In this document: positions 1 through 25,417 of the stretch, piece by piece
Layout: each line of letters starts with the position of its first letter
Position numbering within the stretch: position 1 is the first letter of the stretch
DNA from: a candidate division FCPU426 bacterium
GTDB taxonomy: Bacteria > Oederibacteriota > JAAXVQ01 > JAUVAV01
Assembly: GCA_030619365.1 (NCBI GenBank)
Contig: JAUXBQ010000001.1
Span: 1 to 42,716, forward strand
DNA length: 42,716 nucleotides
Reading direction: 5' to 3'
Position numbers and translations under genes: made by a program
The notes under the pieces: generated by a model
What the model was told of the DNA's origin: nothing
What the model saw: only the letters and a program-made list of their open reading frames with translations
Databases searched by the model: none

Positions 1-591
1 AACATTAGAATTATTTATGTTTACATTGTTAAGGATGTATTCAACCTCGCGCATTAAGATTTCTAATTCGACTAATATATCCTTTATAAATCTTTTATCA
101 GAATCGAGTTTGTTCCAAACTACATGCCATCTATCCTGTGATTCGTTAACAGATTCTTTGAAATATATTTTAAATTCATTCTGTGCCGAAAGTTTTTTAG
201 GCAAAATACTCGCGCAGCTGTTTTCACATGCAAATAACAATATTGATATTGTGTCCTCCTTAAAAAAGCGATATTGTTTCTGGAAATTATGCTTAATCAA
301 GTTTTTCCTTTGCCTCTTCGGAAACCATACTACCAATAAATAAAAAATAACGCTTACAAGGAACCCCATTGTAAGGTTGAAAATCAAAGAATTCCCTGTA
401 TGGAATTGTTGGAATAGTAAATCAATCCATGTGTTGCGGAATATTCGCAGGATAGGCTCGTTGCTCGTTTTGAGGGCTAAAAAAATGCTTGTGAAACTCA
501 ATATCAATAATACTATTAATAAAAGTTTGGTTTTTACTTTTTCTACAAATGATAGGAATTTATTTCTAAAACCAGTATATTTTTTATCCAT
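1..591 (-). CDS. hypothetical two-TM membrane protein; the gene runs off the left edge of the window (partial, 197 codons visible)
   Basis: Own reverse-complement translation. ATG at 591..589 is followed by 197 sense codons with no stop down to position 1, in very AT-rich DNA: MDKKYTGFRNKFLSFVEKVKTKLLLIVLLILSFTSIFLALK...NSLIFNLTMGFLVSVIFYLLVVWFPKRQRK...RWHVVWNKLDSDKRFIKDILVELEILMREVEYILNNVNINNSNV. Two hydrophobic helices precede a charged soluble part. It is missing from the ORF track because no stop lies inside the window. The + ORFs 17..343 and 377..763 are its antisense shadows. No family recognised. Confidence 0.6.
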   Translation of the reverse strand, partial: MDKKYTGFRNKFLSFVEKVKTKLLLIVLLILSFTSIFLALKTSNEPILRIFRNTWIDLLFQQFHTGNSLIFNLTMGFLVSVIFYLLVVWFPKRQRKNLIKHNFQKQYRFFKEDTISILLFACENSCASILPKKLSAQNEFKIYFKESVNESQDRWHVVWNKLDSDKRFIKDILVELEILMREVEYILNNVNINNSNV

Positions 592-616
592 AAACGCAAC
601 TTTTCAATCCTGTCTA

Positions 617-895
617 TTATTCGCGCCCGCAAAGCCGCTCAAATTCCGCGCGTACATCTTCAAAAGTCCGGGCATTGATTCTCTTAAGCCGTGTATAGGT
701 ATCAATACCGCCCTCAGTAGCCATTGCATGCTAAAAATATTCTTCAATTTTATCGGCGCTTGAAAAATTATTTATTCGCATACGGGTGCAACGTACCTTT
801 TTCTTGATAATACCATCTACATCGGGGTGATTTTCGGCAGTACTAAAAACTTCATTTTCTAAAAAATTAATCAGTTCTTCTTTCGAAGCATCCAT
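617..895 (-). pseudogene. small hypothetical ORF (92 codons) interrupted by one in-frame TAG at 731..733; could instead be two mini-ORFs, 731..895 (54 aa) and 617..724 (35 aa)
   Basis: Own translation: MDASKEELINFLENEVFSTAENHPDVDGIIKKKVRCTRMRINNFSSADKIEEYF*HAMATEGGIDTYTRLKRINARTFEDVRAEFERLCGRE*. The ATG at 895 is preceded by AGGAG with a 7-nt spacer, directly after the res stop codon (912..914). Both halves are in the same frame. Below the ORF-track size cut-off. Confidence 0.45.
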
Positions 896-911
896 TTAAT
901 GGCTCCTATTT

Positions 912-3437
912 TTAATGTAAATCGCAAGTAACCATATCGTTTAATTTTGCTTCCCATTCATCCTCAGCCAAGACTTCAAAGTGCATGCCTTTGTTTTTCA
1001 TCTTCAAACCAAGATCAGTCCAATTACTTGATTGTGCCTGCTTTGTGCAAATATCAAAAACTTTTCGTATATATTCAGTTTTTGAATTGTCTATTAAATG
1101 CAGCCCTTTTGTTTCAACCACATAAACGCGGTCATATTCGCGGCTCTGTTCTTTATCAAAGGAAGTAAAGATAAAATCCGGATAGATTTTATGTTGGGCC
1201 CAGCCCTGGATCGAATAATCCAGCCGGGCGCGATTGCGGTACCAGAAAAAAAGGCGTTCTTGTTTTTCTAGATACCAAGCCACGGCTTTTTCAGTTTCAT
1301 TGAAATCTTCCTCTGGGACAAACTCGAAAAGACTTAATTCAAGCTGGCTTCCGTCTTGTTTGGTCAAAGTCCTGGAAGTGGGTTTGATGCGGATTTGGGA
1401 AGGAAAATGAAAAGAAAGGTCTTTCCCGATTATTAAAAAGCGCAATTGATCTTCTTTTAACATGCCGTGGAAAACAGCTTCAGCTAGGCGGTTTTTCTCC
1501 TGTTCCAGAAATTTTCTAAGTTCCTGGATGATGAACACAAAATTATCCGCCAGCATTTTTTCGGATGTGTTCCCACGGAAATGGTCTAAAAGCGTTTTGG
1601 CAAATTCATGAGCTTGCCAGGGATTGGGAACAACATCACCCAACTGCCGGGTCATAAAGACAGGATCAATACGAATACCGCCGCTTTTTAACTGCCTAAC
1701 CGACCTTTGCCGGATAATTTCATGGTGGTCGTCAGCCAGGGTGGCAATATGCTCAATATCTTTTTCTTCAAACGCAGATAATGACAGTTTTTTCACAGGG
1801 GATAAATCGACCTTGCCCCAGGGAATTCTGGCTGCAATATCCATCGCGTAATTTACAGGACGCCAGCTTTTCCCGTTTTTTACCACAAAAACCGGCAAAA
1901 TGGTTCTGCCGGCAGCTTGCTTGAACCGGTCTCGAATACTAACAAAACGTTCTTCGCCGGATATATCACCGGCTGGCTGGTCAATGGCAATATGTCCACG
2001 CAAATCGCCCAAACCTTCGCGGGCGAATCCATCCCGAATGCTGTCAAGCAATTGATTTGCTTTCTGCTGGAAACAAAACACATAACTTTCATCAAGTTCT
2101 TGGATTCCTGTCTTTCTTGCCATTGGTTGGCGCAGAATACGGCCTACAAGCTGAGTAAGGGCGTTTTGGGAAGAAGGATTGGTTAAAATAACCAGAACAT
2201 ACGCGAACGCACAGTCCCAGCCCTCTTGCAGAGCTTGTTTGGTGATAATATAGCGGATTTGACAATCCCGCGTCATTAAACCGCCAATGTTATCTATTTC
2301 TTTCAATTCATCTTTTTCGCTGGTCTTGATTGCTATTTGATCGGCCGGGATACTCATGTTTTTAATGAGATGTTCCCGGACGTGTTCAGAGTGAATATAG
2401 CGGCTGCCCTGTTGGTCGCGTCCTGTGCGTTCGACTTGAATTAAGCATATTGGCCGAATGTTAATCCCGGTTTTAGCTTCGTGTTTTTTAGCCTTTTCTT
2501 CCAGTGAATTACGCCGGTTATAGCCATCAAGCAGGGTATCTTTCCAATCCAGACTGGCTTTGTTTATGACATGGAGATCAAGCTTAATCATTTCTTCACA
2601 GTGCAGTTCACGCCCTGTGATATCAATTAAAATATTGCTTTGAACCGGCGTGGCGGAAAATTCAGCAATTATACGGGGATTAAAACCACGCAGGGTTTCC
2701 TGGGCGCCTTCACTGTAAGCCTTATGTCCTTCATCCAGGATAATAACAGGCGAAAGCAGCCTTAGCGTATTGCCCAGAGAAGTTTTTATTTGCCGCCCCC
2801 AAAAGCCGCTTTCTTTTTCATAAGTATCAAGGTTGGGAAATTTCTTTAGCACGTTTTCCTGGCTTTTAATATCATCCTCGTTGGGGAAAAAATCCTGGAA
2901 ACCTCCGCTATCCTTGAAAACTTTTAAAGTCTCCTTGGTTTTTCGATTGGCCGAAGGCAGCATAAGCATAAGGACCACTAAATTTTCAGCAACATCCTGG
3001 GGAGCAAAGCGGTCGGTTTTTTCCAGAATAAGAGTATGCCCGCCGCTGGCGAGATCAAGATGCTGGCGGTAGGGATGATCCCGGTCTTTAAGGTGATTAA
3101 TCGTTTGGCGGTAAATCTGGGTGGTTGGAACAATCCAAAGCACAAGGCCAGTCTTTTGTTTTCGATAAGTCATATTAATTGAATCGATGGTTTTAACTGC
3201 CAAGAGCGTTTTGCCGCCGCCGGTTGGTATTTTAAAACAAAAGTCGGGAAGCGGCTGGTTGAGGCCGTTCTTGCGGTCGGCATAAGGGCATCTTATACCG
3301 GCTTTTTCCCAGGCTTTAACCGGGAAGTCTATTTCCAGCTCAGGATTATTTTCAGCCTTGGTTCTCCATTCGGCTAATAATTCCAAATAACGCCTGAGCT
3401 CGCTTAAGGCTCTTTGCTGATATTCTTTAAGCTGCAT
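912..3437 (-). CDS. res: Type III restriction enzyme, Res subunit (SF2 helicase plus PD-(D/E)xK nuclease)
   Basis: 841-aa ORF. Helicase motifs are I 'KIPTGGGKTLLA', II 'IILDEGHKA', III 'FSATP' and VI 'QLVGRILRQP'. The C-terminal nuclease signature is 'YPDFIFT...VYVVETKG'. The ATG lies 3 nt after the mod stop, giving the classic mod-res order. Confidence 0.9.
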   Translation of the reverse strand: MQLKEYQQRALSELRRYLELLAEWRTKAENNPELEIDFPVKAWEKAGIRCPYADRKNGLNQPLPDFCFKIPTGGGKTLLAVKTIDSINMTYRKQKTGLVLWIVPTTQIYRQTINHLKDRDHPYRQHLDLASGGHTLILEKTDRFAPQDVAENLVVLMLMLPSANRKTKETLKVFKDSGGFQDFFPNEDDIKSQENVLKKFPNLDTYEKESGFWGRQIKTSLGNTLRLLSPVIILDEGHKAYSEGAQETLRGFNPRIIAEFSATPVQSNILIDITGRELHCEEMIKLDLHVINKASLDWKDTLLDGYNRRNSLEEKAKKHEAKTGINIRPICLIQVERTGRDQQGSRYIHSEHVREHLIKNMSIPADQIAIKTSEKDELKEIDNIGGLMTRDCQIRYIITKQALQEGWDCAFAYVLVILTNPSSQNALTQLVGRILRQPMARKTGIQELDESYVFCFQQKANQLLDSIRDGFAREGLGDLRGHIAIDQPAGDISGEERFVSIRDRFKQAAGRTILPVFVVKNGKSWRPVNYAMDIAARIPWGKVDLSPVKKLSLSAFEEKDIEHIATLADDHHEIIRQRSVRQLKSGGIRIDPVFMTRQLGDVVPNPWQAHEFAKTLLDHFRGNTSEKMLADNFVFIIQELRKFLEQEKNRLAEAVFHGMLKEDQLRFLIIGKDLSFHFPSQIRIKPTSRTLTKQDGSQLELSLFEFVPEEDFNETEKAVAWYLEKQERLFFWYRNRARLDYSIQGWAQHKIYPDFIFTSFDKEQSREYDRVYVVETKGLHLIDNSKTEYIRKVFDICTKQAQSSNWTDLGLKMKNKGMHFEVLAEDEWEAKLNDMVTCDLH

Positions 3438-3440
3438 GTT

Positions 3441-5045
3441 TCACCTGGCAAGTTCGTAAATTTCAAAAGGCAATTGGCAAAAATCAATGCGGTATTGATC
3501 CAGATAAGCCTGGTCCAAGTATTTCGTGGGCGCAAACACCAATCGGCGTTTGTCTTTTTTAAGCGGCGGCAAGGAATCGGTAATATCTAAAGTAAGCGCC
3601 AGATTTTTAAGTTTAGATAAATCCGGTTTGTAGAATAGATAAACTTGATAGTTTTTACTTTCGCCGACGAAACCGGTCTTTATATCAATACCTTTTTCGT
3701 TAAATTCCTCTCCAGTGGCTGTGTAGAAAACATAGCGGGCAAGTTCTTTATAAGTGGGCAGATTATCGCCGTCAAGAATGCTTTCCAATTCAATGGCTTT
3801 GCCAAGCTCGAAGAAACTAAACGTGCCTTTCAAACCTTTTTTGAGAGTTTCATCTTTTGCCTTGGGAACGCCTTTTATTACCTGCCGTACTCTTTCGGCG
3901 GTAATTTTATCAGCGTAGTCTTCGCATTCAATCAAGATAAACTTACGATTGCCGCTGTCTTCTTTGTTGAGTGCGAGGACAGCATGAGCAGTTGTGCCGG
4001 AACCGGAAAACGAATCCAAAATAATGGCATCGTGATCAAACTGAGTATTTATCGAAATTAATTCCTTTATTAAACTTGAAGGTTTAGGATAATCCAGTTT
4101 TCGTTCAGTGAAAATTGATTTTAGTTCTATGCTTCCATGTGCTGTTGTTTTAACAATATCAGATTCTAAAATTGAAGAATACGCAGTGTTTGTCTCTGAC
4201 CCAGAAGGTATAATCCTATAAGCCTCAATATAACCATCGTCCTGCTTTTCAAAAACGACTAGTCCTTTTTTAATTAAACTATCGAGTTTGTCTTTGCTCA
4301 TCCGCCATCTTCCATCGGTTCCATCGGGTTTTTTAGGATAAACCTTTCCAAATTCTTCAGAGTTGATAGGATAATACATGGTAGGTCTATCTTCCCTACG
4401 GTCGCCTTGGCCCCATTGCCGTAAGCGTTCTTTACCTTCTTTCTCAGTAATGCGCTTGTCCGTTTTAAAATCGATTAATGAAATGTTTTTAGCATAGCAA
4501 ATAATGTATTCATGTAGTTTGGCTGTTTCCTGAGCTGTGGCTCCTTTTCCCAAACGCGACTTCCAAATAAAAGTTTCTATAAAATTTTGTTCACCAAATA
4601 CATTGTCCATCAACATTCGCAAGTGGTGATACTCATTGTCGTCAATGGATATAAATATTGCACCATTGTCCGCCAAAAGTTCCCGCAGCAGTTTCAATCT
4701 CGGAGTCATCATGCAGAGCCATTTGTCATGCCGGGTTAGGTCTTCACTATCAACAACTTTGCCCAGCCATTCCTGCATCATCGGTGAATTTACATTGTCA
4801 TTGTAAGCCCACTTTTCATTGCCGGTGTTGTAAGGCGGGTCAATATAGATGCATTTGATTTTTCCGGCATAAAGCGGCAGCAGGGCCTTGAGCGCTTTTA
4901 GATTATCGCCGTGTATAATCAGATTATCATTCAGACTGACTTTATCCGTTAAGCTTTTGCTTTTAATTGGAATTAATTCGTGGTATTTGACCAGCAAGTG
5001 GTGGTTTTGAACAAACGTTTTTCCTTTAAATTGGATTTGTGCCAT
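3441..5045 (-). CDS. mod: Type III DNA methyltransferase, Mod subunit (beta-class N6-A/N4-C methyltransferase)
   Basis: 534-aa ORF. Catalytic motif IV 'CIYIDPPYNTG' lies near the N-terminus. AdoMet motif I 'ILDSFSGSGTTAHA' lies in the C-terminal third. The order IV, variable region, I is typical of Type III Mod. It sits immediately upstream of res. Confidence 0.9.
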   Translation of the reverse strand: MAQIQFKGKTFVQNHHLLVKYHELIPIKSKSLTDKVSLNDNLIIHGDNLKALKALLPLYAGKIKCIYIDPPYNTGNEKWAYNDNVNSPMMQEWLGKVVDSEDLTRHDKWLCMMTPRLKLLRELLADNGAIFISIDDNEYHHLRMLMDNVFGEQNFIETFIWKSRLGKGATAQETAKLHEYIICYAKNISLIDFKTDKRITEKEGKERLRQWGQGDRREDRPTMYYPINSEEFGKVYPKKPDGTDGRWRMSKDKLDSLIKKGLVVFEKQDDGYIEAYRIIPSGSETNTAYSSILESDIVKTTAHGSIELKSIFTERKLDYPKPSSLIKELISINTQFDHDAIILDSFSGSGTTAHAVLALNKEDSGNRKFILIECEDYADKITAERVRQVIKGVPKAKDETLKKGLKGTFSFFELGKAIELESILDGDNLPTYKELARYVFYTATGEEFNEKGIDIKTGFVGESKNYQVYLFYKPDLSKLKNLALTLDITDSLPPLKKDKRRLVFAPTKYLDQAYLDQYRIDFCQLPFEIYELAR

Positions 5046-16679: not shown

Positions 16680-18125
16680 TTATTCAAAGCGTTTCCGGCG
16701 GCTGGCCGGAAGCAGGTTCAGTTCTTCGCGATACTTGGCCACCGTGCGGCGCGCGATTCGAAAGCCTTTGACCGCCAGCATCTCGGTGAGGCGCTGGTCG
16801 GAAAACGGCCGCCGGAGATTTTCCTGCGCCACGAATTCCTGGATCGCGGCTTTCACGCTGGTGGAGGAAATATCGCCTCCGTCCACGCGCTTGATCTGGC
16901 TGGAGAAAAAGTACTTCAACCGAAACAGCCCCCGCGGGGTCTGGATGTACTTATGACTGGTCACGCGGGAAACCGTCGACTCATGCAGCTCAACCCGATC
17001 GGCGATCTGCTTCAACGTCAAGGGCTTTAAGTGTTCAACGCCTTTTTCGAAAAAATCTTCCTGAAACTCCACAATGGTTTCCACCACCCGGTACAGCGTC
17101 TTGCGCCGTTCGTCGATGCTGCGGATCATCCACTTGGCCCGCTGCAGGCGGTCATCCAGGTACTTGCGGGTTTCCGGCGTAATCTTCGATCCCCGCCGCA
17201 GCAATTTGCGGTAGGTGCCGCTGATTTTCAGCTCTGGCAGGGAATCGTTATTAATGATAATAATGTACTGATCGTCGTGTTTTTCCAGTATCACGTCCGG
17301 GACCACGTATTCCACGTGACCGGAAATATGGTGACGGCCCGGATAGGGGTCCAGCCCTGCGATGACTTTGGCCGCGGCGGCCACCTGACTGCGAGGCACT
17401 TTTTCGGCCCGGGTGATCTGATCCAATTGGTGCCGCTCCAGGGCCAGAAAATGTTTCTCCACGATGGTTTCCGCCAGCGGATTACACTCGGGCAGCTGCC
17501 GCAATTGAATCAGCAGGCTCTCCTTAACGTCCCGGGCACCCACGCCCACGGGATCCAGGCCCTGGATAATGGCCAGCACGTCCGCCACCAGGTCCGGCAG
17601 GGCTCCGCTTTCCCGGGTGATCTCCTCGAGCGGCACGGACAAAAATCCGCGCTCATCCAGGTTGCCGATGATCAGCTCGCCGATACGGTATTCTTCCTCT
17701 TGGCTGATGACCAGCCGCAATTGCCACAGCAAATGTTCCTGCAGCGTGGGTTGCTGGGCGATTTGCGGTTCGCTGTAGTCCGGCCCGGTCTGGCGCTCGA
17801 ATTTGGGAAGTTCGTAATCGTCGCTCCAAAAATAATCGGCCCAGCGCTCCTGCTCGATGTCGGAATTTACCTGCTGCCCCTCGTCCAGGACCACTTCCTG
17901 GGTTCGATCGCGCTCCGCGGTTGCCGGGGCTTCTTCTTCTGTGGCCGGATGAAGAGCGGGTCCCTCGCCGTTGTTCTGCTCTTCCAGCATGGGATTTTCC
18001 GCCAATTCCTGAGTGACCGTATTTGCCAGCTCAACCGTGGTCAATTGGAGCACCTTGAGCGCCTGCTGCAGCATGGGCGTCAGGGTCTGCTTTAATTCAT
18101 GACGGATATCCAATCCCAGCTTCAA
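16680..18125 (-). CDS. rpoN: RNA polymerase sigma-54 factor
   Basis: N-terminal 'LKQTLTPMLQQALKVLQL'; C-terminal HTH and RpoN box 'ARRTVAKYRE'. 481 aa. TTG start at 18125 with AAGGGA upstream. Confidence 0.95.
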   Translation of the reverse strand: MKLGLDIRHELKQTLTPMLQQALKVLQLTTVELANTVTQELAENPMLEEQNNGEGPALHPATEEEAPATAERDRTQEVVLDEGQQVNSDIEQERWADYFWSDDYELPKFERQTGPDYSEPQIAQQPTLQEHLLWQLRLVISQEEEYRIGELIIGNLDERGFLSVPLEEITRESGALPDLVADVLAIIQGLDPVGVGARDVKESLLIQLRQLPECNPLAETIVEKHFLALERHQLDQITRAEKVPRSQVAAAAKVIAGLDPYPGRHHISGHVEYVVPDVILEKHDDQYIIIINNDSLPELKISGTYRKLLRRGSKITPETRKYLDDRLQRAKWMIRSIDERRKTLYRVVETIVEFQEDFFEKGVEHLKPLTLKQIADRVELHESTVSRVTSHKYIQTPRGLFRLKYFFSSQIKRVDGGDISSTSVKAAIQEFVAQENLRRPFSDQRLTEMLAVKGFRIARRTVAKYREELNLLPASRRKRFE

Positions 18126-19227: not shown

Positions 19228-19419
19228 TTACTCTTCTATCAGGATGGCAGCGGCCGGACAGACATCCGCCGTGTTCTTGGCCTTATCCGCCAAATCGCCT
19301 TCCGGGTTTGCCACGAGCACCTTGGCCAATCCATTGTCAGCCATCTCAAAGACTTCTGGCAGGTCCGTAGTACACAGGCTGCAGCCCGTGCACAAGCTTT
19401 CATCTATAGTGACTTTCAT
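19228..19419 (-). CDS. small single-cluster ferredoxin
   Basis: 63 aa. 'CTGCSLC' plus distal 'CP' (CxxCxxC...CP). Strong SD AAGGAGGA upstream of the ATG. Confidence 0.85.
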   Translation of the reverse strand: MKVTIDESLCTGCSLCTTDLPEVFEMADNGLAKVLVANPEGDLADKAKNTADVCPAAAILIEE

Positions 19420-19488
19420 TGCGAGCTTCCTCCTTCTGATTGATATTCTTACTCAACTTATGCAAATACCCATTCACCGTATGCTATT

Positions 19489-19606
19489 AACGACCAGGCG
19501 GGTGGTCTGCTTTTACCAAGTCTCGCGCCCTGGCTGGGCGCTTGCTGTCATGACCAGGTTTTTCTTCGCCACCTCTTGGGAAAAGCAGACCACCCGCTTG
19601 GTTGTT
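19489..19606. repeat. long imperfect inverted repeat: 32-nt arms with 29/32 complementary, 54-nt spacer
   Basis: The left arm is AACGACCAGGCGGGTGGTCTGCTTTTACCAAG (19489..19520). The right arm is CTTGGGAAAAGCAGACCACCCGCTTGGTTGTT (19575..19606). The spacer holds a nested CGCCC-N5-GGGCG hairpin (19526..19540). It lies between the DUF116 stop and the ferredoxin start. Confidence 0.8.
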
Positions 19607-19662
19607 CCAGCACCGGATTGCTCCCACCGAAGCTAAAGCTGTTTTTTGCAAAAATCGTGTTA

Positions 19663-20469
19663 TTATTTAACGGCAGGCTTCCCTGGTTGGCCCAGGAACA
19701 TGCGAATGGCCTCCTCAATTTGCGTGAGATCCACCACCGTGTTCTTACAGGGTCCGTCCGGTCTCCGAATGGAAAAAGCCAGCACCGGTATCCGGCCGTG
19801 CAGGTCCTTGATACCCACCAATAAATCCCGCTCACAGGCCACGGCCACAATGCCCTGGGGCCGGTGTTGGGCAATGCCCTTGCGGGCCTCTGTGCCGCCG
19901 AAGGCCACAACTTGGGAAAAACCATAAGCGTCCTTCAGGGCCCGCAGTCCCTGCATGCTCTCCCTGCCCAGGCAACGCGGCGCCAGAAGCAACAACCGGA
20001 CCGGGTCCTGAATCAAGGGCGGCAGTACTTCCAGGCGGTTGTAAATGCGCACAAAGGCGTGTCCCACGCGGTCGCGCGATAACCCGAACACCTTGCCCCA
20101 GGTCACGGCCGGACTGATGGCCCAGCGGATGCCCCCGAGAAAACGCACCATCTGCTTGCCAGCACCCAGGCCCTGCGTTCCCAGCAGTAGAGACAGGTAC
20201 CAAGCCAGTAGATAACCCGCTCCCGCGGCCGCGATTACCCAAACCAGCCAGCCCGTGCCAAAGGCCGAGAGCCGCGGAGCAACCAACCATAGCGCAAGTC
20301 CGCCGAGCGCCATGGCACTTGCCATTGTCAAGCCAGTCAAAACGACGAACACCCAGGCCGGCGTTTCGGTGTTGTCCTGTTGACGGGTTCCGTCCCAGTC
20401 AACCCATTCGTCTCCCAGCTTGCGGTCCGGATCGGTCGCTGGCGGCTGATCTGGCTTTTCAAACGGCAC
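19663..20469 (-). CDS. DUF116-like membrane protein
   Basis: N-terminal TM helices, then 'LLLAPRCL...VVAFGGTEARKGI...PQGIVAVACERDLLVGI...IPVLAF...GPCKNTVVDL'. From memory this matches the DUF116 pattern (..GGT.A....IiaVACERDL..G...iP...GpC.nT.Vd). Family call not verified. Confidence 0.55.
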   Translation of the reverse strand: MPFEKPDQPPATDPDRKLGDEWVDWDGTRQQDNTETPAWVFVVLTGLTMASAMALGGLALWLVAPRLSAFGTGWLVWVIAAAGAGYLLAWYLSLLLGTQGLGAGKQMVRFLGGIRWAISPAVTWGKVFGLSRDRVGHAFVRIYNRLEVLPPLIQDPVRLLLLAPRCLGRESMQGLRALKDAYGFSQVVAFGGTEARKGIAQHRPQGIVAVACERDLLVGIKDLHGRIPVLAFSIRRPDGPCKNTVVDLTQIEEAIRMFLGQPGKPAVK

Positions 20470-20509
20470 TGGCCCAGTCCTCGCTATGATCGGCGATAAT
20501 CAGCTCAGA

Positions 20510-20538
20510 AGTATAAACGCCGGCCGGGGAACAGTCAA
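20510..20538 (-). promoter_or_regulatory. near-consensus sigma-70 promoter upstream of the DUF116-like gene
   Basis: Minus strand reads TTGACT (20538..20533), a 17-nt spacer, then TATACT (20515..20510). This is about 40 nt upstream of the GTG at 20469. Confidence 0.55.
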
Positions 20539-20612
20539 GAATGAATCCTGGTCCGCCGGGGTCCGGACTACGCTGGCCTGGATTTCAGGGGAGGGATGAC
20601 CAATGATCTAAT

Positions 20613-21239
20613 TTATGAGGCCAATAGGATAATCCCCTTAAAAGCAAACCACAATCCAATTCCACCCGCAGCCCAGCGGCCGACGACTTGAATCCACTTT
20701 CCCCTGGCCAGTAGGCCCGCGGCCGGCAGGGGCAATAAAATCAGAGAGGTGCCGACAAAAAACGAGGACAGAACCAGGAAGCCGCCCCAGGGCCCGCCCG
20801 AGCGGGAGGCGCTCAGCAAAACGGCCAGAAAAGGCGGACAGATATTGATGCCGGTCAGGAGCCCCAGCATAAGGGGCGTGCGCTCTTGCCAGGCGCCTTT
20901 TTCCAGAAACCGGCAAAACGACCAGTGGGGAAAATTCTGCAATAGGGCAAACAGGACCAGTACCACGCCCAAGCCGGTAAAAACCACGCCTTCCAGCAGG
21001 CGGGCCGGCCGGTCCGGCAACATGATTTCCCGGCCCATCCAGCCGGCCAGGAGCCCCATGGCGGCGTAGCCGATAAAACGCCCACCTAGAAATTGCCCGA
21101 ACGCCTTGAGGTTGGCCAGCCCGCTCCGTTGCTCGGCCCCGAAATAGGGGAGCAGGAGGGGCACGCATACGCCCAGGCAGGAGGGAGAAAGAGCCAGGCC
21201 CAAAATGAATCCTTGTCCCAATAGGGTGGAAATATCCAT
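20613..21239 (-). CDS. CcdA/DsbD-like (DsbD_2/TauE-like) polytopic membrane protein
   Basis: 208 aa with about 6 hydrophobic helices. A TM1 Cys-Pro context 'GLALSPSCLGVCVPLLLPY' and a later 'GINICPPFL' recall the two TM cysteines of CcdA (SPCvLP / PCigP). The CDS call is solid. The functional call is tentative. Confidence 0.5.
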   Translation of the reverse strand: MDISTLLGQGFILGLALSPSCLGVCVPLLLPYFGAEQRSGLANLKAFGQFLGGRFIGYAAMGLLAGWMGREIMLPDRPARLLEGVVFTGLGVVLVLFALLQNFPHWSFCRFLEKGAWQERTPLMLGLLTGINICPPFLAVLLSASRSGGPWGGFLVLSSFFVGTSLILLPLPAAGLLARGKWIQVVGRWAAGGIGLWFAFKGIILLAS

Positions 21240-21305
21240 GAGGGTTACTCTACTTTTTATAAATGCGATGCACGAGAAGGTAGGGGGTCCTTCGTCCCCC
21301 GGGAT

Positions 21306-22571
21306 TCAGGCGGTTGGGGCGGGATACTTTTTGACCATGACCAGCTGATTGGCCCCCTTGCGCGAGACGTACTGCACGTTATCCATCAGGGAATTGATTA
21401 AAATACCGCCCACGCCCCGCTCCTCGCTCCGTTGGATAGCCGCCCGAATTGAGCGGACTTTGCGACGGGTGATGTCATAGGGGGCGCCCCGGTCCTGTAT
21501 CCTGATTGCCAGATATTTCTTGAAAAAGCGTATCTTTACGCTCATGACCTGGTGGGTGTCGAAATCGTAACCGTGCTCAATTATGTTGAGCAGGGCCTCT
21601 TCCACCGCCAGCACCACGTCATTTACGAAGGTTTCCGGGAATTTTTCCTGCTCGCAGATGCTGGTGATAAACTGACGGATCGCGCCGATATGATTGACGT
21701 CACTGTTGATTTTAATTTCCACGTCTCTAAACCGCGTGGGGGGCGGACTCTCCGGGCTCCCCTTTTTGAGCGTAATGACGTGCGCCCAGGCATCAACGAA
21801 AAATATTTCGCCGCAATGCTGGCAGCGATAGATATTCATCCCCTTCACGTGCGCCTGAGAGCGGCAGCTGTGGCAATTGACCAGGCAGGGAAATTTCGCG
21901 AGGCGCTCGTCTTCATAGACGTGCAGGGAGAAGCGTTTATCCACTTCCCCATCGCCGATGCTCAGGGTGCGATACCCTGAATCCGTAATGGCGATTTTGC
22001 CTTCCCACACACCGCTCTGAAAATCCTTGAGTACGTGGGGAAAAACCAACCCCTCGTCAACCGCGAAGTGCGGTTCTCCCTCGTAGTCCTGGACGGGCTG
22101 TTCATCCCGGTCGCGCGCCTCCACCCTGATTTCGTGTTCCCGCCCGGCGACGAATTTCTTTTCTTTTTTCAGGAAAATTTTAAAATGGCTGACAGCCGTC
22201 TGGGCCGCTTTTAACTCCAGCGGCCGCCATTCGGCCACTTCGGTTTCCGCGTCCAGGAAATCAACGATATCCGTCAAACCAATGCCCTTAAAAACATTCA
22301 GGACTTTGGGCGACACGTGCAGCAGCTTGATGTCTCCCCCGGGCTGATTGCGCACGCGCTTCAGGCAGCCGACAATCGCCCCCACGCCCACGGAACTGAT
22401 GTAGTCCATCTCCGTCAGGTCGATGAGAATCCGGGTTTGCTGGTTGTCGATTAATTTCTGCAGGCAAGACTTGAATTCGGGCGTGGAATAGACATCAATT
22501 GTGCCCTGGACTTTCAGGCGGGTAACCTCGGCATTTACTTCGCTGGGCGCTATTTCGAAGGTTGTTTCCAT
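21306..22571 (-). CDS. fusion protein: STAS (anti-sigma-factor antagonist) domain, unassigned domain, CxxC-x13-CxxC zinc ribbon, RsbW/SpoIIAB-type serine kinase domain
   Basis: STAS region: 'ILIDLTEMDYISSVGVGAIVGCLKRVRNQPGGDIKLLHVSPKVLNVFKGIGLTDI'. Zinc knuckles: 'NCHSCRSQAHVKGMNIYRCQHCGEIF'. Kinase N box 'VLAVEEALLNIIEHGY', G1 'IQDRGAPYD' and G2 'ERGVGGILINSLMDNV'. I prefer the ATG at 22571 (METTFEI). The ORF-track TTG start is 22589. Confidence 0.8.
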   Translation of the reverse strand: METTFEIAPSEVNAEVTRLKVQGTIDVYSTPEFKSCLQKLIDNQQTRILIDLTEMDYISSVGVGAIVGCLKRVRNQPGGDIKLLHVSPKVLNVFKGIGLTDIVDFLDAETEVAEWRPLELKAAQTAVSHFKIFLKKEKKFVAGREHEIRVEARDRDEQPVQDYEGEPHFAVDEGLVFPHVLKDFQSGVWEGKIAITDSGYRTLSIGDGEVDKRFSLHVYEDERLAKFPCLVNCHSCRSQAHVKGMNIYRCQHCGEIFFVDAWAHVITLKKGSPESPPPTRFRDVEIKINSDVNHIGAIRQFITSICEQEKFPETFVNDVVLAVEEALLNIIEHGYDFDTHQVMSVKIRFFKKYLAIRIQDRGAPYDITRRKVRSIRAAIQRSEERGVGGILINSLMDNVQYVSRKGANQLVMVKKYPAPTA

Positions 22572-22617
22572 ATCCAACCCTTTCTGCAAACCCTGGAAAA
22601 CAGGCTATAAATATTTA

Positions 22618-22726
22618 GCCACAGATACATACAGATGCACACAGAAAAATAAAGATTAAATAAAAATAAGTATTTAAAGATTTTTTACTCTAGCTCGATC
22701 TGTGTGAATCCGTGTGCATCTGTGGC
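22618..22726. repeat. imperfect inverted repeat of CACAGAT-type units: 27-nt arms with 23/27 complementary, around a 55-nt almost pure A/T spacer
   Basis: The left arm is GCCACAGATACATACAGATGCACACAG (22618..22644). The right arm is CTGTGTGAATCCGTGTGCATCTGTGGC (22700..22726). It lies in the divergent intergenic region between 22571 and 23015. Confidence 0.8.
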
Positions 22727-22886
22727 GATTCTTATCCTGCGCCGGGTCGTTCCCGGTGGCTGGCCATAAGCCCGCGCCGCACCCGCGCCCGTCCGGACGC
22801 ATCCGGAGAAACTAAATTGTACCCAGGTTAAAACAGGGGAGTCAATGATAATCATCGGCGCCCTGTCCCGGAGAGAAGGTTTGCCA

Positions 22887-22916
22887 TTGGTAAAAAGGCA
22901 TTCTATCCCTTATAAT
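22887..22916 (+). promoter_or_regulatory. candidate sigma-70 promoter for the STAS and PP2C operon
   Basis: TTGGTA (22887..22892), an 18-nt spacer, then TATAAT (22911..22916). This is about 100 nt upstream of the ATG at 23015. The -35 element is only a partial match. Confidence 0.35.
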
Positions 22917-23014
22917 AATCCAGTGGCGAGGCATTGGGCTCTGTTGGCTCGATACCCGCAGACTAACCGCGCCGGGAGTAACGGCCCCCGGCTTTCGGCC
23001 TTGAGCGAGGTACT

Positions 23015-23368
23015 ATGAGCGGCGTTAAACTATCCCAGGAGCTTCAGGACGGCATCGTAATCCTCCGGGTCAGCGGCTTTATGGACATGTTGGGAATGGA
23101 AAAATTCGTGCAAACGCTGGATAGATGTATTATGGATGGCACCAGTAAAATTATTTTGGATTTTAAGTTCCTGGAATATATTTCCTCAGCCGGGTTGGGG
23201 GCCATAATCGGCCGTATCCGCGACCTGCGGCGGGTCGGCGGCGACATCAAAATAGGCGGTTACTCTGACCGGGTTTTTGAGCTGTTTCAAACCTTTGGGT
23301 TCACCGAGACCTTTGACATCTGTGACGACATCGCCAAAGCGCTCGCAAACTTTAAAAATCCGTCTTAA
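23015..23368 (+). CDS. STAS-domain anti-sigma-factor antagonist (SpoIIAA/RsbV-like)
   Basis: 117 aa. 'IILDFKFLEYISSAGLGAIIGRIRDLRRVGGDIKIGGYSDRVFELFQTFGFTETF' includes the conserved phosphorylatable Ser context. GAGG SD upstream. Confidence 0.9.
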   Translation: MSGVKLSQELQDGIVILRVSGFMDMLGMEKFVQTLDRCIMDGTSKIILDFKFLEYISSAGLGAIIGRIRDLRRVGGDIKIGGYSDRVFELFQTFGFTETFDICDDIAKALANFKNPS

Positions 23369-23455
23369 GCCGTTCTGCCTCCGCCGACGCCCCGGTTTTA
23401 GGGTATCGGCCGCTCGTCAAGGGACCCGGCAATTTCCGAAAAGGAACCAAACCCT

Positions 23456-25018
23456 TTGCCCACCGCTAATCCGCGCGAAAAACCCGCTCACGTGACCCAG
23501 ACCCGGGCCTTCCGCCCGGGCCTGGGCCTCGGTTTCAAAATTTCCGCGGCCATTATCATTCTCATTTCCATCGTCATGGGCCTGGTCACCTGGGTGGTGC
23601 GCGAGCGAGTACAGGATACCCTGCTGGCCCAGATGCGGCTCAAAGGCCTGGCGCTAACCCGGGGCCTGGCCGCCAACGCCGCGGAAGCACTGATCACCGC
23701 TGATCGCCTCTTGCTATCCGAGCTGGTTGACAAGGCCGTCAAGCAGGAAGACGGCATCAACTTCGTAGCGTTGGTGGACGAAGAGGGCGTGATCCTGGCG
23801 CACAGTAATTACCAGCAGGAGGGGCAGAGGTATACCCTGCCGCCCGACTTCAGTCATGAACAGCTCCAAACCGGGCGCCTTTCCTATTATACGCTGGACG
23901 GCGAACCCTGCCTGGACTTTGCCCTGCCTATTCTGCTGGAGGAAATGGGCATCGGTTTGAAGAAAAAACTGGGAACCGCCCACGTCGTATACCTGCTCTC
24001 GCCCATCAGGCAGATTGTGAACACCACCCTCCGGGATATTTTTTACATCGCTGCCGGCGGTTTGGCGTTGGGCATCCTGTTCGCTCTGTTTCTGGTCAAG
24101 CGCATTACGCGGCCCATCGCCCGCCTGGCCGGGGCTGCCCATAAAATCGGCGCGGGCAATCTTGATCTCTCGTTGAAAATAACCAGTCGCGATGAATTAG
24201 GACAGCTGGCGTCGACCTTCAACCTGATGACCGCCAATCTAAAAAAGGCCCAAGCCGAATTAATCGTCAAGGAACGGCTGCAGCATGAAATGGAACTGGC
24301 CAGGCAAATACAGACTCTCCTGGTCCCTAAAAAAAGCCCCACGCTTCCAGGTTATTCGATCGGCATGCTGTACCGCGCCGCCCAGGAGGTCAGCGGGGAT
24401 TACTTTGATTTTATTGAGTTGGGCCATGGCCAGTGGGGCATTGTCATGGCCGACGTTTCAGGCAAAGGTATTCCGGGTGGGCTGGTCATGGCGCAGACCC
24501 GCGCCACGCTCAGGACCGTAGCGCCCGCGAGCACCTCCCCCCGGGAAACACTGTCCAAAACGCAGAGACAGCTGGATCAGGACATTCGCGAGGACATGTT
24601 CATCACGCTGTCCTATTTGGTTCTGGATGTCGCCAAAAAGCAACTCTGTTTGGCCCGGGCCGGGCACTTGGGCGCGCTGGTCTATCGTCAGGCCCTGGGC
24701 CGGTGTGAAATGGAAATGCCCGCCGGCATTGCGATCGGCATCGCGGACCCGGACACGTTTGAACGGAAACTTAGTGAAAAAACGATCAAGTTGCATCCCG
24801 GCGATTTCATTTTCCTCTACACGGACGGCATCGACGAGGCCAGCGACGAGGCCAACCACCTCTTTGGGCTGAACCGCCTGGTCAAGTGCCTGGTGGCTTC
24901 GGCCTCCTTACGGGCGGAAAAGATTATTACCCGGGTCGAACAGGCTGTCCGGGCTTTCGCCGGGAACGCCCCTCAAAATGACGACATGACCATGATCGTT
25001 ATTAAAATTGAAAAATAA
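23456..25018 (+). CDS. membrane sensor, HAMP domain and PP2C (SpoIIE/RsbU-type) serine phosphatase
   Basis: Two TM helices flank an extracytoplasmic region of about 150 aa. HAMP: 'RITRPIARLAGAAHKIGAGNLDLSLKITSRDELGQLASTFNLM'. PP2C motifs: 'EVSGDYFDF', 'VMADVSGKGIPG', 'LYTDGIDEA' and 'QNDDMTMIVIK'. The start codon is uncertain (TTG at 23456 or GTG at 23492). Confidence 0.88.
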   Translation: MPTANPREKPAHVTQTRAFRPGLGLGFKISAAIIILISIVMGLVTWVVRERVQDTLLAQMRLKGLALTRGLAANAAEALITADRLLLSELVDKAVKQEDGINFVALVDEEGVILAHSNYQQEGQRYTLPPDFSHEQLQTGRLSYYTLDGEPCLDFALPILLEEMGIGLKKKLGTAHVVYLLSPIRQIVNTTLRDIFYIAAGGLALGILFALFLVKRITRPIARLAGAAHKIGAGNLDLSLKITSRDELGQLASTFNLMTANLKKAQAELIVKERLQHEMELARQIQTLLVPKKSPTLPGYSIGMLYRAAQEVSGDYFDFIELGHGQWGIVMADVSGKGIPGGLVMAQTRATLRTVAPASTSPRETLSKTQRQLDQDIREDMFITLSYLVLDVAKKQLCLARAGHLGALVYRQALGRCEMEMPAGIAIGIADPDTFERKLSEKTIKLHPGDFIFLYTDGIDEASDEANHLFGLNRLVKCLVASASLRAEKIITRVEQAVRAFAGNAPQNDDMTMIVIKIEK

Positions 25019-25075
25019 ACGGATGAGAAGGTGAAAAGGGAGGGAGCGAGCGGAGGAATTTCCGGCTTCCGGCTG

Positions 25076-25417
25076 TCAGCGCATGCCGTGTTTTAACAAT
25101 TGGCTCCAAATAATCAGCTTGCCCTGCTTGTTGTTGTTGAAATCCATGAACTTCTCGACGTCTTTGGCCTGCTGAGCCGTGGGGTGATAGGCGTAGATTG
25201 GATCATCTGCTTCTCCCCACTGCCGCAGAAACCGCCTCTCTTTCAATAGTGAGAGCGGCTCTTTCAGGTCATTGGTTCGCCGCCCCAACCGGCTGGCAAT
25301 TCCTTCGGTGGTGTCGGTAATACCGGGATTATTCCATAAAAACACGAGTAATTCCCACATCACCAGGGAATCGACATTAGTGGCGATAAATTTGTCTAAT
25401 TCCTTGTCAAGCTTCAC
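25076..25417 (-). CDS. hypothetical protein, possibly a winged-helix fold
   Basis: 113 aa. GTG start with GGAGG 5 nt upstream and its own promoter. 'VMWELLVFLWNNPGITDTTEGIASRLGRRTNDLKEPLSLLKERRFL' looks like a MarR/ArsR-style wHTH by eye. No family recognised. Confidence 0.5.
   Translation of the reverse strand: MKLDKELDKFIATNVDSLVMWELLVFLWNNPGITDTTEGIASRLGRRTNDLKEPLSLLKERRFLRQWGEADDPIYAYHPTAQQAKDVEKFMDFNNNKQGKLIIWSQLLKHGMR

Follow-up and report, generated by a model that had tools for sequence, protein, structure and literature searches.

What does a partner switch control when no sigma factor gene lies beside it? This question is raised by a locus on contig JAUXBQ010000001.1 of a candidate division FCPU426 bacterium (assembly GCA_030619365.1), of which we analysed positions 1 to 42,716 (hereafter the window). 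In this locus a gene for a serine kinase fused to a STAS domain (the fusion gene) diverges from the genes for a stand-alone STAS protein and a membrane-bound sensor phosphatase. The reading that we favour, and that taken as a whole we consider moderately probable, is that these three genes form a genuine partner-switching cassette, which in this lineage entered as a unit of ~3.8 kb into a variable spot of an older gene block (uvrA-orf113 | DsbD_2-DUF116-fdx-metallophosphatase-rpoN), that the neighbouring genes are unrelated to its function and that its target is encoded elsewhere. The output of the switch most likely acts in trans. The assignments in the following rest on Pfam profiles, AlphaFold2 (AF2) models, Foldseek searches against the PDB, trees and synteny.

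Domain architecture of the switch proteins

All four open reading frames (ORFs) named in the original prediction are found in the ORF listing of the window at the coordinates proposed there, and our analysis confirmed that three of them, the switch genes at 21306-25018, encode a fusion kinase, a free STAS protein and a sensor phosphatase (Table 1). The phosphatase is a membrane protein of the RsbU-like type, as predicted, and its extracytoplasmic region turned out to be a single-Cache domain. For the fusion gene, the ORF of 427 amino acids (aa) begins at a TTG (22589), and an alternative ATG (22571) gives 421 aa. The ATG carries a Shine-Dalgarno-like motif (AAAGGG) 7-8 nt upstream, coincides with the start of the existing gene call of the contig (P0001, 421 aa) and is more likely the true start. 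Pfam recognizes the STAS domain of the fusion protein (E 4.7e-14) and, as a full-length match, its HATPase_c_2 domain (PF13581, E 2.8e-24), but assigns no family to about 180 residues in between, for which zinc-ribbon profiles gave sub-threshold matches only. The identity of this middle region, an Ig-like domain followed by a Cys4 ribbon, therefore rests on the structure model, Foldseek and an exhaustive sequence search. The AF2 model of the fusion protein (mean predicted local distance difference test score, pLDDT, 81; predicted template modelling score, pTM, 0.54) comprises a STAS fold (residues 1-112), a beta-sandwich (129-219), a beta zinc ribbon (229-269) and a GHKL fold (283-415). Foldseek matched the kinase part to SpoIIAB, RsbW and UsfX (TM score 0.78-0.91 on the target), the fused STAS part to SpoIIAA, RsbV and TM1442, and the sandwich to Ig domains of SbsC, intimin and filamin. 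The motifs are intact: in an alignment of twelve full-length homologues (40-53% identity; residues numbered as in the 421-aa protein), the STAS loop Y-x-S-S-x-G-x-G (S59/S60), the CxxC...CxxC cysteines (C233, C236, C250 and C253) and the N-box (EExLLNIIEH), G1 box (DxGxP) and G2 box (GxGG) of the kinase are all invariant. Alignment, model and tree agree that the sandwich and the CxxC...CxxC ribbon of the window protein directly precede HATPase_c_2, as they do in the FCPU426 kinase family to which we refer as Ig/zinc-ribbon (Ig/Zn) kinases.

How common is such a kinase? A search for the middle region among 1.84 billion representatives returned 111 proteins in total. About a dozen 50%-identity clusters (289-430 aa) carry Ig and ribbon directly before a kinase-sized C-terminus, as judged from protein length and match position, and the remaining matches are giant proteins (1000-5100 aa) with as many as 17 copies of the Ig part (summed E down to 7e-53). 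By this count the predicted STAS-Ig-Cys4-RsbW kinase architecture is rare, and its cytoplasmic Ig module was probably recruited from repeat proteins. Among the results listed in our literature searches, no paper links a zinc ribbon or an Ig-like domain to RsbW or to an antagonist of an anti-sigma factor. Since partner switches unlinked to a sigma gene are already known, the missing sigma gene is in itself ordinary; what is new is this kinase architecture, the fused-only, free-only and both-STAS states of its family and the clean synteny around the cassette, the latter two being described below.

The free STAS protein has Ser58 ('YISSAG') in the phosphoserine column of SpoIIAA and RsbV. This column is occupied by a serine in both STAS domains of the window (S58 in the free, S66 in the fused one) and likewise in each of the ten other STAS domains of the phylum in the alignment (10/10); the SpoIIAA and RsbV sequences served as guides to set the register only. 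In the phosphatase, Pfam identifies sCache_3_2 (55-162), HAMP (212-263) and SpoIIE/PP2C domains (PF07228, 324-518, E 4.7e-44), the latter match covering profile positions 2-191 of 192. Two hydrophobic segments at about 29-48 (transmembrane helix TM1) and 192-211 (TM2) enclose the Cache domain, and orthologues of the protein with 50-61% identity are present in 10 related genomes.

The hardware of a partner switch, that is a phosphorylatable STAS domain, a HATPase_c_2 kinase with N, G1 and G2 boxes and a PP2C input, is complete at the locus (3/3), but a linked sigma gene is missing. In Bacillus, the RsbU-RsbV-RsbW (sigma-B) and SpoIIE-SpoIIAA-SpoIIAB (sigma-F) switches likewise combine a PP2C phosphatase with a phosphoserine STAS antagonist and a HATPase_c_2 GHKL kinase, and the folds predicted for the window superpose on the 1TIL, 1L0O, 6M36 and 6M37 chains. 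However, the module of the window has no sigma gene in its operon or near any family member, its kinase adds an N-terminal STAS domain, an Ig-like domain and a Cys4 zinc ribbon, its phosphatase is a membrane Cache-HAMP sensor, and there are two STAS domains per kinase. A precedent for STAS and kinase in one polypeptide, and thereby for action in cis, is provided by Rv1364c of Mycobacterium tuberculosis (3KE6), a single sensor-PP2C-GHKL kinase-STAS chain whose antagonist domain gains and loses phosphate within the same protein (Greenstein et al. 2009, summarized in PMC7693655). In contrast to Rv1364c, the window has its fused STAS at the N-terminus, i.e. in reversed order, a separate phosphatase, an Ig/zinc-ribbon insert and a free STAS gene that has been kept.

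Table 1. Features of the switch locus and its surroundings in the window
Feature	Position	Strand	Description	Evidence
Fusion gene	21306..22589	-	STAS, Ig-like beta-sandwich, Cys4 zinc ribbon, RsbW/SpoIIAB-type GHKL serine kinase	ORF, Pfam, AF2, Foldseek, alignment
Fused STAS domain	22257..22541	-	aa 17-111; Ser66 ('YISSVG') in SpoIIAA/RsbV phosphoserine column	Pfam, alignment
Ig-like seven-strand beta-sandwich	21915..22187	-	aa about 135-225 (427-aa ORF); strands 129-219 in 421-aa numbering	AF2, Foldseek
Cys4 zinc ribbon	21765..21887	-	C239, C242, C256, C259 (427-aa ORF)	Invariant Cys, beta-ribbon in model
HATPase_c_2 kinase domain	21330..21707	-	aa 295-420; N-box, G1 and G2 boxes	Pfam, alignment
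Divergent control region	22590..23014		Back-to-back sigma-70-like promoters and AT-rich inverted repeat	
Stand-alone STAS gene	23015..23368	+	117 aa; divergent from fusion gene	Pfam STAS, E 3.4e-16
Sensor phosphatase gene	23456..25018	+	520 aa; TM-sCache-TM-HAMP-PP2C	Pfam
orf113	25076..25417	-	MarR/ArsR-like winged helix; outside module, resident of uvrA-rpoN block	AF2, Foldseek, synteny
DsbD_2, DUF116 and ferredoxin genes	19228..21239	-	Outside module, block residents	Pfam, synteny in relatives
rpoN	16680-18125		3.2 kb from fusion gene	

Insertion site between uvrA and rpoN

Do the neighbouring genes belong to the switch? Orthologues of the window genes were located in relatives and the surrounding regions were fetched, the genes of the relatives being simple ORF calls. 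Eight genomes, which belong to two families of the order, have the interval on one contig (G001, G003, G005, G006, G009, G011, G012 and G014), and in G002 both of its ends sit on contig edges. The relatives have the gene order mnmA-p461-uvrA-orf113-DsbD_2-DUF116-...-metallophosphatase-rpoN-hpf-ptsN, with only 14-128 bp between orf113 and DsbD_2 in G011, G012, G014 and G003. None of the ten uvrA-rpoN loci of relatives that were examined contains STAS, Ig/Zn, kinase or PP2C sequence, and among the loci compared it is only in the window that the three switch genes stand between DsbD_2 and orf113. Judged from gene order, one gain in the lineage of the window appears far more parsimonious than many losses. 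The interval (21240-25075 in the window) accommodates other genes elsewhere: its counterpart comprises 7 kb of unrelated genes in G001, including a PIN-domain/antitoxin-like pair, a gene for a GGDEF protein in G006, and genes for a GIY-YIG protein and another ORF in G009. As far as these comparisons tell, the stretch from orf113 to DsbD_2/DUF116 is a variable insertion hot spot with different cargo in almost every genus. The junction formed by uvrA, orf113 and the convergent PP2C gene recurs on a Logan contig of independent origin, from another sample and with 78-90% aa identity; thus, the PP2C/orf113 junction is real and no assembly artefact, and the insertion is common to a close relative. 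The junction between the fusion gene and DsbD_2 was seen in one assembly only.

Since orf113 and the redox genes keep their order in relatives without the switch genes, they predate the cassette and are not partners of the module. Throughout the order, orf113 is conserved in its place between uvrA and the DsbD_2-DUF116-ferredoxin genes, with identities of 49-86%. Its description as winged-helix-like held up: the AF2 model (pLDDT 90.6, pTM 0.83) adopts a MarR/ArsR-like winged helix, for which Foldseek retrieved MepR, AbfR, HlyU and CzrA (E about 1e-4, TM score 0.5-0.68) as well as SqrR, and Pfam gave no match. Rather than being part of the switch, orf113 more plausibly regulates the DsbD_2-DUF116-ferredoxin genes next to it.

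In agreement with the original prediction, no sigma gene adjoins the locus and no sigma-70-family ORF occurs anywhere in the window. The genes between rpoN and the fusion gene are all on the minus strand and encode metallophosphoesterase, a 63-aa ferredoxin, DUF116 and DsbD_2 proteins. A linkage of the module with rpoN was considered and rejected as chance. An operon-type module does lie two genes upstream of rpoN-hpf in G015, but this neighbourhood is not kept in G022, G028 and G033, which belong to the same family and carry the module; the proximity of rpoN in the window is a by-product of insertion beside a pre-existing block. Synteny thereby removes the tempting outputs, i.e. the winged-helix regulator, the redox membrane proteins and rpoN, and to this extent the main contribution of our analysis is a negative one.

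Relatives, paralogous modules and sigma factor genes

The possibility had been raised that the three switch genes might not be co-conserved at all. This is largely true of their exact arrangement, which is restricted to the window, a close relative in which one junction was seen and, in another orientation, one other genus (G005). The relatives of the fusion gene have different neighbours in nearly every genus. The closest homologue (53%) is flanked by nusB and infC on a JGI metagenome contig, and the fusion orthologues of genus g2 are followed by DUF1007 and NicO genes. In a well-supported paralogous fusion clade, to which a second fusion gene of this genome (contig C76) belongs, the gene before the fusion invariably encodes a protein that is anchored in the membrane and has a long low-complexity spacer rich in Ala, Glu and Pro. 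DsbD_2 and DUF116 were considered as conserved partners of the fusion and rejected, as the genes in g2 are similar in length only and correspond to DUF1007/NicO, without similarity. The composition of the module, however, is conserved: an operon TPR-[Cache-HAMP-PP2C]-STAS(120 aa)-[STAS]-Ig-Zn-kinase has been kept in at least 17 genomes from several families of the phylum. This operon has the same three components as the window and a kinase of the same family, to which the fusion of the two-gene unit with the membrane-tethered low-complexity protein belongs as well. It differs from the window in that the kinase of the latter is not a member of the operon clade (it groups weakly with the JGI homologue as sister, 67/93) and its phosphatase falls inside the non-operon A/B clade (100/100); in addition, the genes of the window are divergent rather than co-directional and have no GGDEF, MCP or membrane-tethered partner gene. 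At L045-L059 (e.g. L045 6204-11585), the gene after the conserved operon encodes a HAMP-GAF-GGDEF cyclase in two families and a protein with an MCP signal domain in a third, which hints at a c-di-GMP or chemotaxis-like output for this paralogue.

Within the module, STAS and PP2C genes form a pair that is tightly kept together among relatives, and the free STAS gene is always accompanied by a PP2C gene, whichever kinase is nearby. In G005, a fusion-clade gene is convergent to an A/B-clade PP2C-STAS pair, and the identical site in the sister species G008 has no fusion gene. A sister relationship of the fusion genes of G005 and the window was marginally rejected by the approximately unbiased test (p 0.047), with the G005 gene on a long branch, so that the juxtaposition in G005 is probably, though borderline, a second event independent of that in the window. 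At the window site, the three switch genes are present as one block with back-to-back promoters: a promoter scan predicts sigma-70-like promoters at 22887-22916 on the plus strand (STAS-PP2C) and at 22845-22816 on the minus strand (fusion gene), about 40 bp apart. The arrival as a block, the juxtaposition in G005 and the phylum-wide operon together argue for a functional link of the three genes. The divergent region contains no sigma-54 promoter, and the window-wide count of such promoters is below shuffled expectation. An AT-rich inverted repeat upstream of the fusion gene (22618-22663 / 22681-22726) was considered as a module-specific operator and rejected, as its arms (22616-22645, 22698-22726; 'CCACAGATACATACAGATGCACACAGAAAA') have copies with 90-97% identity on at least 20 further contigs. 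There, copies of the arms often form inverted pairs 50-220 nt apart, and by this distribution the repeat is a dispersed REP/MITE-like element and no private operator.

The relatives also reveal how STAS domains are distributed over the Ig/Zn kinases. In some lineages the operon kinase lacks a fused STAS domain (289-299 aa), and the paralogous clades have the fused STAS only. The family thus exists in three states, free-only, fused-only and both, and the window represents the last of these. This distribution suggests that fused and free STAS domains could be interchangeable antagonists of the same kinase surface, and the natural versions make the role of the tethered antagonist, in cis versus in trans, directly testable. 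The genome itself spans 2.57 Mb on 349 contigs. Its switch hardware comprises four PP2C phosphatase proteins, five RsbW-type kinase domains and eight STAS domains, and at least five module types are present. Switch logic has accordingly been heavily diversified in FCPU426, an uncultured phylum. Contig C321 (2-2188) and relatives (G001:C5 51582-53549) encode proteins of ~730-855 aa in which an RsbW-type kinase at the N-terminus is combined in one chain with a membrane sensor, HAMP and PP2C, beside a STAS gene.

Could homologous loci consistently carry a sigma gene that was lost or relocated here? This is not so, as none of ~33 Ig/Zn-kinase loci with flanks of roughly 6-8 kb contains a sigma-70-family ORF. 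The only sigma ORFs in the fetched loci are 2.7 and 5 kb away from two STAS-PP2C pairs without a kinase (G004 and G006). Likewise, the five RsbW-type kinase domains encoded by the genome all lack an adjacent sigma gene, the nearest pair being 11 kb apart on contig C321. The genome has ten sigma-70-family genes, i.e. those for RpoD, a 484-aa RpoD-like protein, one group-3 sigma and seven ECFs, plus rpoN. The group-3 sigma (contig C49, 264 aa) has regions 2, 3 and 4 and is SigB/SigF/FliA-like.

Proposed mechanism and rival readings

From knowledge of the families involved, the switch can be pictured as follows. An extracytoplasmic signal would be sensed by the single-Cache domain and relayed via HAMP to PP2C. 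The free STAS protein, co-transcribed with the phosphatase, would then be dephosphorylated by it at Ser58, as might the fused STAS domain at Ser66. Unphosphorylated STAS, whether free and acting in trans or tethered and acting in cis, would bind to the RsbW-type kinase domain and, once docked, would displace cargo held by this domain or by the attached Ig/zinc-ribbon platform. Re-phosphorylation of the serine by the kinase would finally reset the switch. A sigma factor encoded in trans, the free STAS protein and the Ig/zinc-ribbon module are the three candidate routes of output.

The fused middle domain, which was among the outputs initially put forward, may be the output. Taking this further, we tentatively consider that the Ig/Zn kinases could form a family of sigma-independent switches, in which the tethered STAS domain would be an antagonist in cis, the Ig/Cys4 platform would bind the output or sense metal or redox state, and free and fused STAS domains would compete; the cassette of the window would then be a mobile unit in the 'both' state.

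A somewhat doubtful alternative is that the kinase domain sequesters a sigma factor encoded elsewhere, which is set free upon STAS binding. The fold of the kinase domain is closest to true anti-sigma factors, i.e. SpoIIAB, RsbW and UsfX, and the single group-3 sigma of the genome would be the best candidate, with its regions 2, 3 and 4 and with orthologues (57-76% identity) in all 15 genomes of the order that carry fusion-clade and A/B-type modules. However, since this sigma factor is present throughout the order, its co-occurrence is uninformative and makes it a candidate target in trans only. Moreover, no Ig/Zn-kinase gene is linked to a sigma gene in the loci surveyed above, the Ig/zinc-ribbon module has no counterpart in anti-sigma factors, and homologues of RsbW can be pure STAS kinases, as is the case for RsbW2 of M. 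smegmatis, which does not bind a sigma factor (PMC7693655).

Equally doubtful is a scenario in which the free 117-aa STAS protein is itself the effector and acts on a non-sigma target when unphosphorylated, the fusion protein being its kinase and the fused STAS domain a tethered competitor that tunes kinase availability. Sigma-independent switches acting via STAS are documented (PMC8256260, PMC10120452, PMC13555669, PMC6482189), and the known non-sigma switches include SypE/SypA (Vibrio fischeri), BtrU/V/W (Bordetella), HsbR/HsbA (Pseudomonas), RbaV/W/Y (Rhodobacter) and HenR (Anabaena) (PMC10120452, PMC8256260, PMC6482189, PMC3999984, PMC13555669). As in the window, their hardware is unlinked to a sigma gene, and their output is exerted through protein-protein contacts with other targets. 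The constant co-transcription of free STAS and phosphatase in relatives, whatever kinase adjoins, fits this scenario, as does the cyclase or MCP-signal protein gene that follows the operon kinase, which is reminiscent of HsbA-HsbD. On the other hand, those modules lie in or beside the cluster that they regulate, or their target has been identified, whereas the locus of the window encodes no candidate target, has no conserved neighbour and features a different kinase architecture. Furthermore, the fused STAS domain is conserved as well as the free one, including the serine, which suggests that it is more than a decoy.

Several observations weigh against the cassette reading as a whole. The G1 box deviates from the usual form (DxGxP instead of DxGxG) and kinase activity is predicted only, and the relative orientation of the domains in the fusion model is uncertain at a pTM of 0.54. 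In an insertion hot spot, two separate insertions are possible. Neither a STAS nor a PP2C gene adjoins the majority of fusion-gene relatives, and the fusion protein may work alone or with another phosphatase. The A/B-clade STAS-PP2C pair, in turn, more often continues with HU, a PcrA/UvrD helicase, a second STAS and a 143-aa RsbW, and this small RsbW may be its usual partner. Finally, the PP2C proteins and kinase domains counted above, four and five in number, provide other possible partners within the genome. In this genome, the HU/helicase-type module is split over contigs C122 and C61; elsewhere (L025 6129-11371; L027), genes for STAS, PP2C, HU/IHF-like, PcrA/UvrD-type helicase, STAS and 143-aa RsbW proteins interleave downstream of an ABC-type gene set.

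Taken to its end, this line of thought makes the arrangement a coincidence: the fusion protein would be a self-contained switch in cis, unrelated to the STAS-PP2C pair, and both would have landed in one hot spot. The cargo that differs in almost every genus, the habits of the two gene classes just described and the dispersed repeat element between the two transcription units are in line with this view. It nevertheless requires two insertions at one site, and the promoters are back to back at short distance. In addition, the same two gene classes were probably brought together independently in G005, and the same three-part composition forms an operon across the phylum. We therefore regard coincidence as unlikely and retain the three-gene cassette. 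Control of the original candidates, orf113 or the DsbD_2/DUF116/ferredoxin genes, by the switch is highly improbable, because physical adjacency in the window and the DNA-binding winged-helix fold of orf113 are offset by the unchanged order of these genes, with orf113 as conserved neighbour of uvrA, DsbD_2 and rpoN, in relatives that have no switch genes at the site and carry them elsewhere.

Two minor observations concern other sequences. Positions 1-5000 of the window have a G+C content of 34-44%, as compared to about 57-66% over the remaining window, and may represent a foreign or otherwise atypical segment. At L028 15995-16615 (G005:C7), a 206-aa ORF consists almost entirely of perfect tandem units of 15 residues, 'GCPDR(L/R)GHYYERDAF'.

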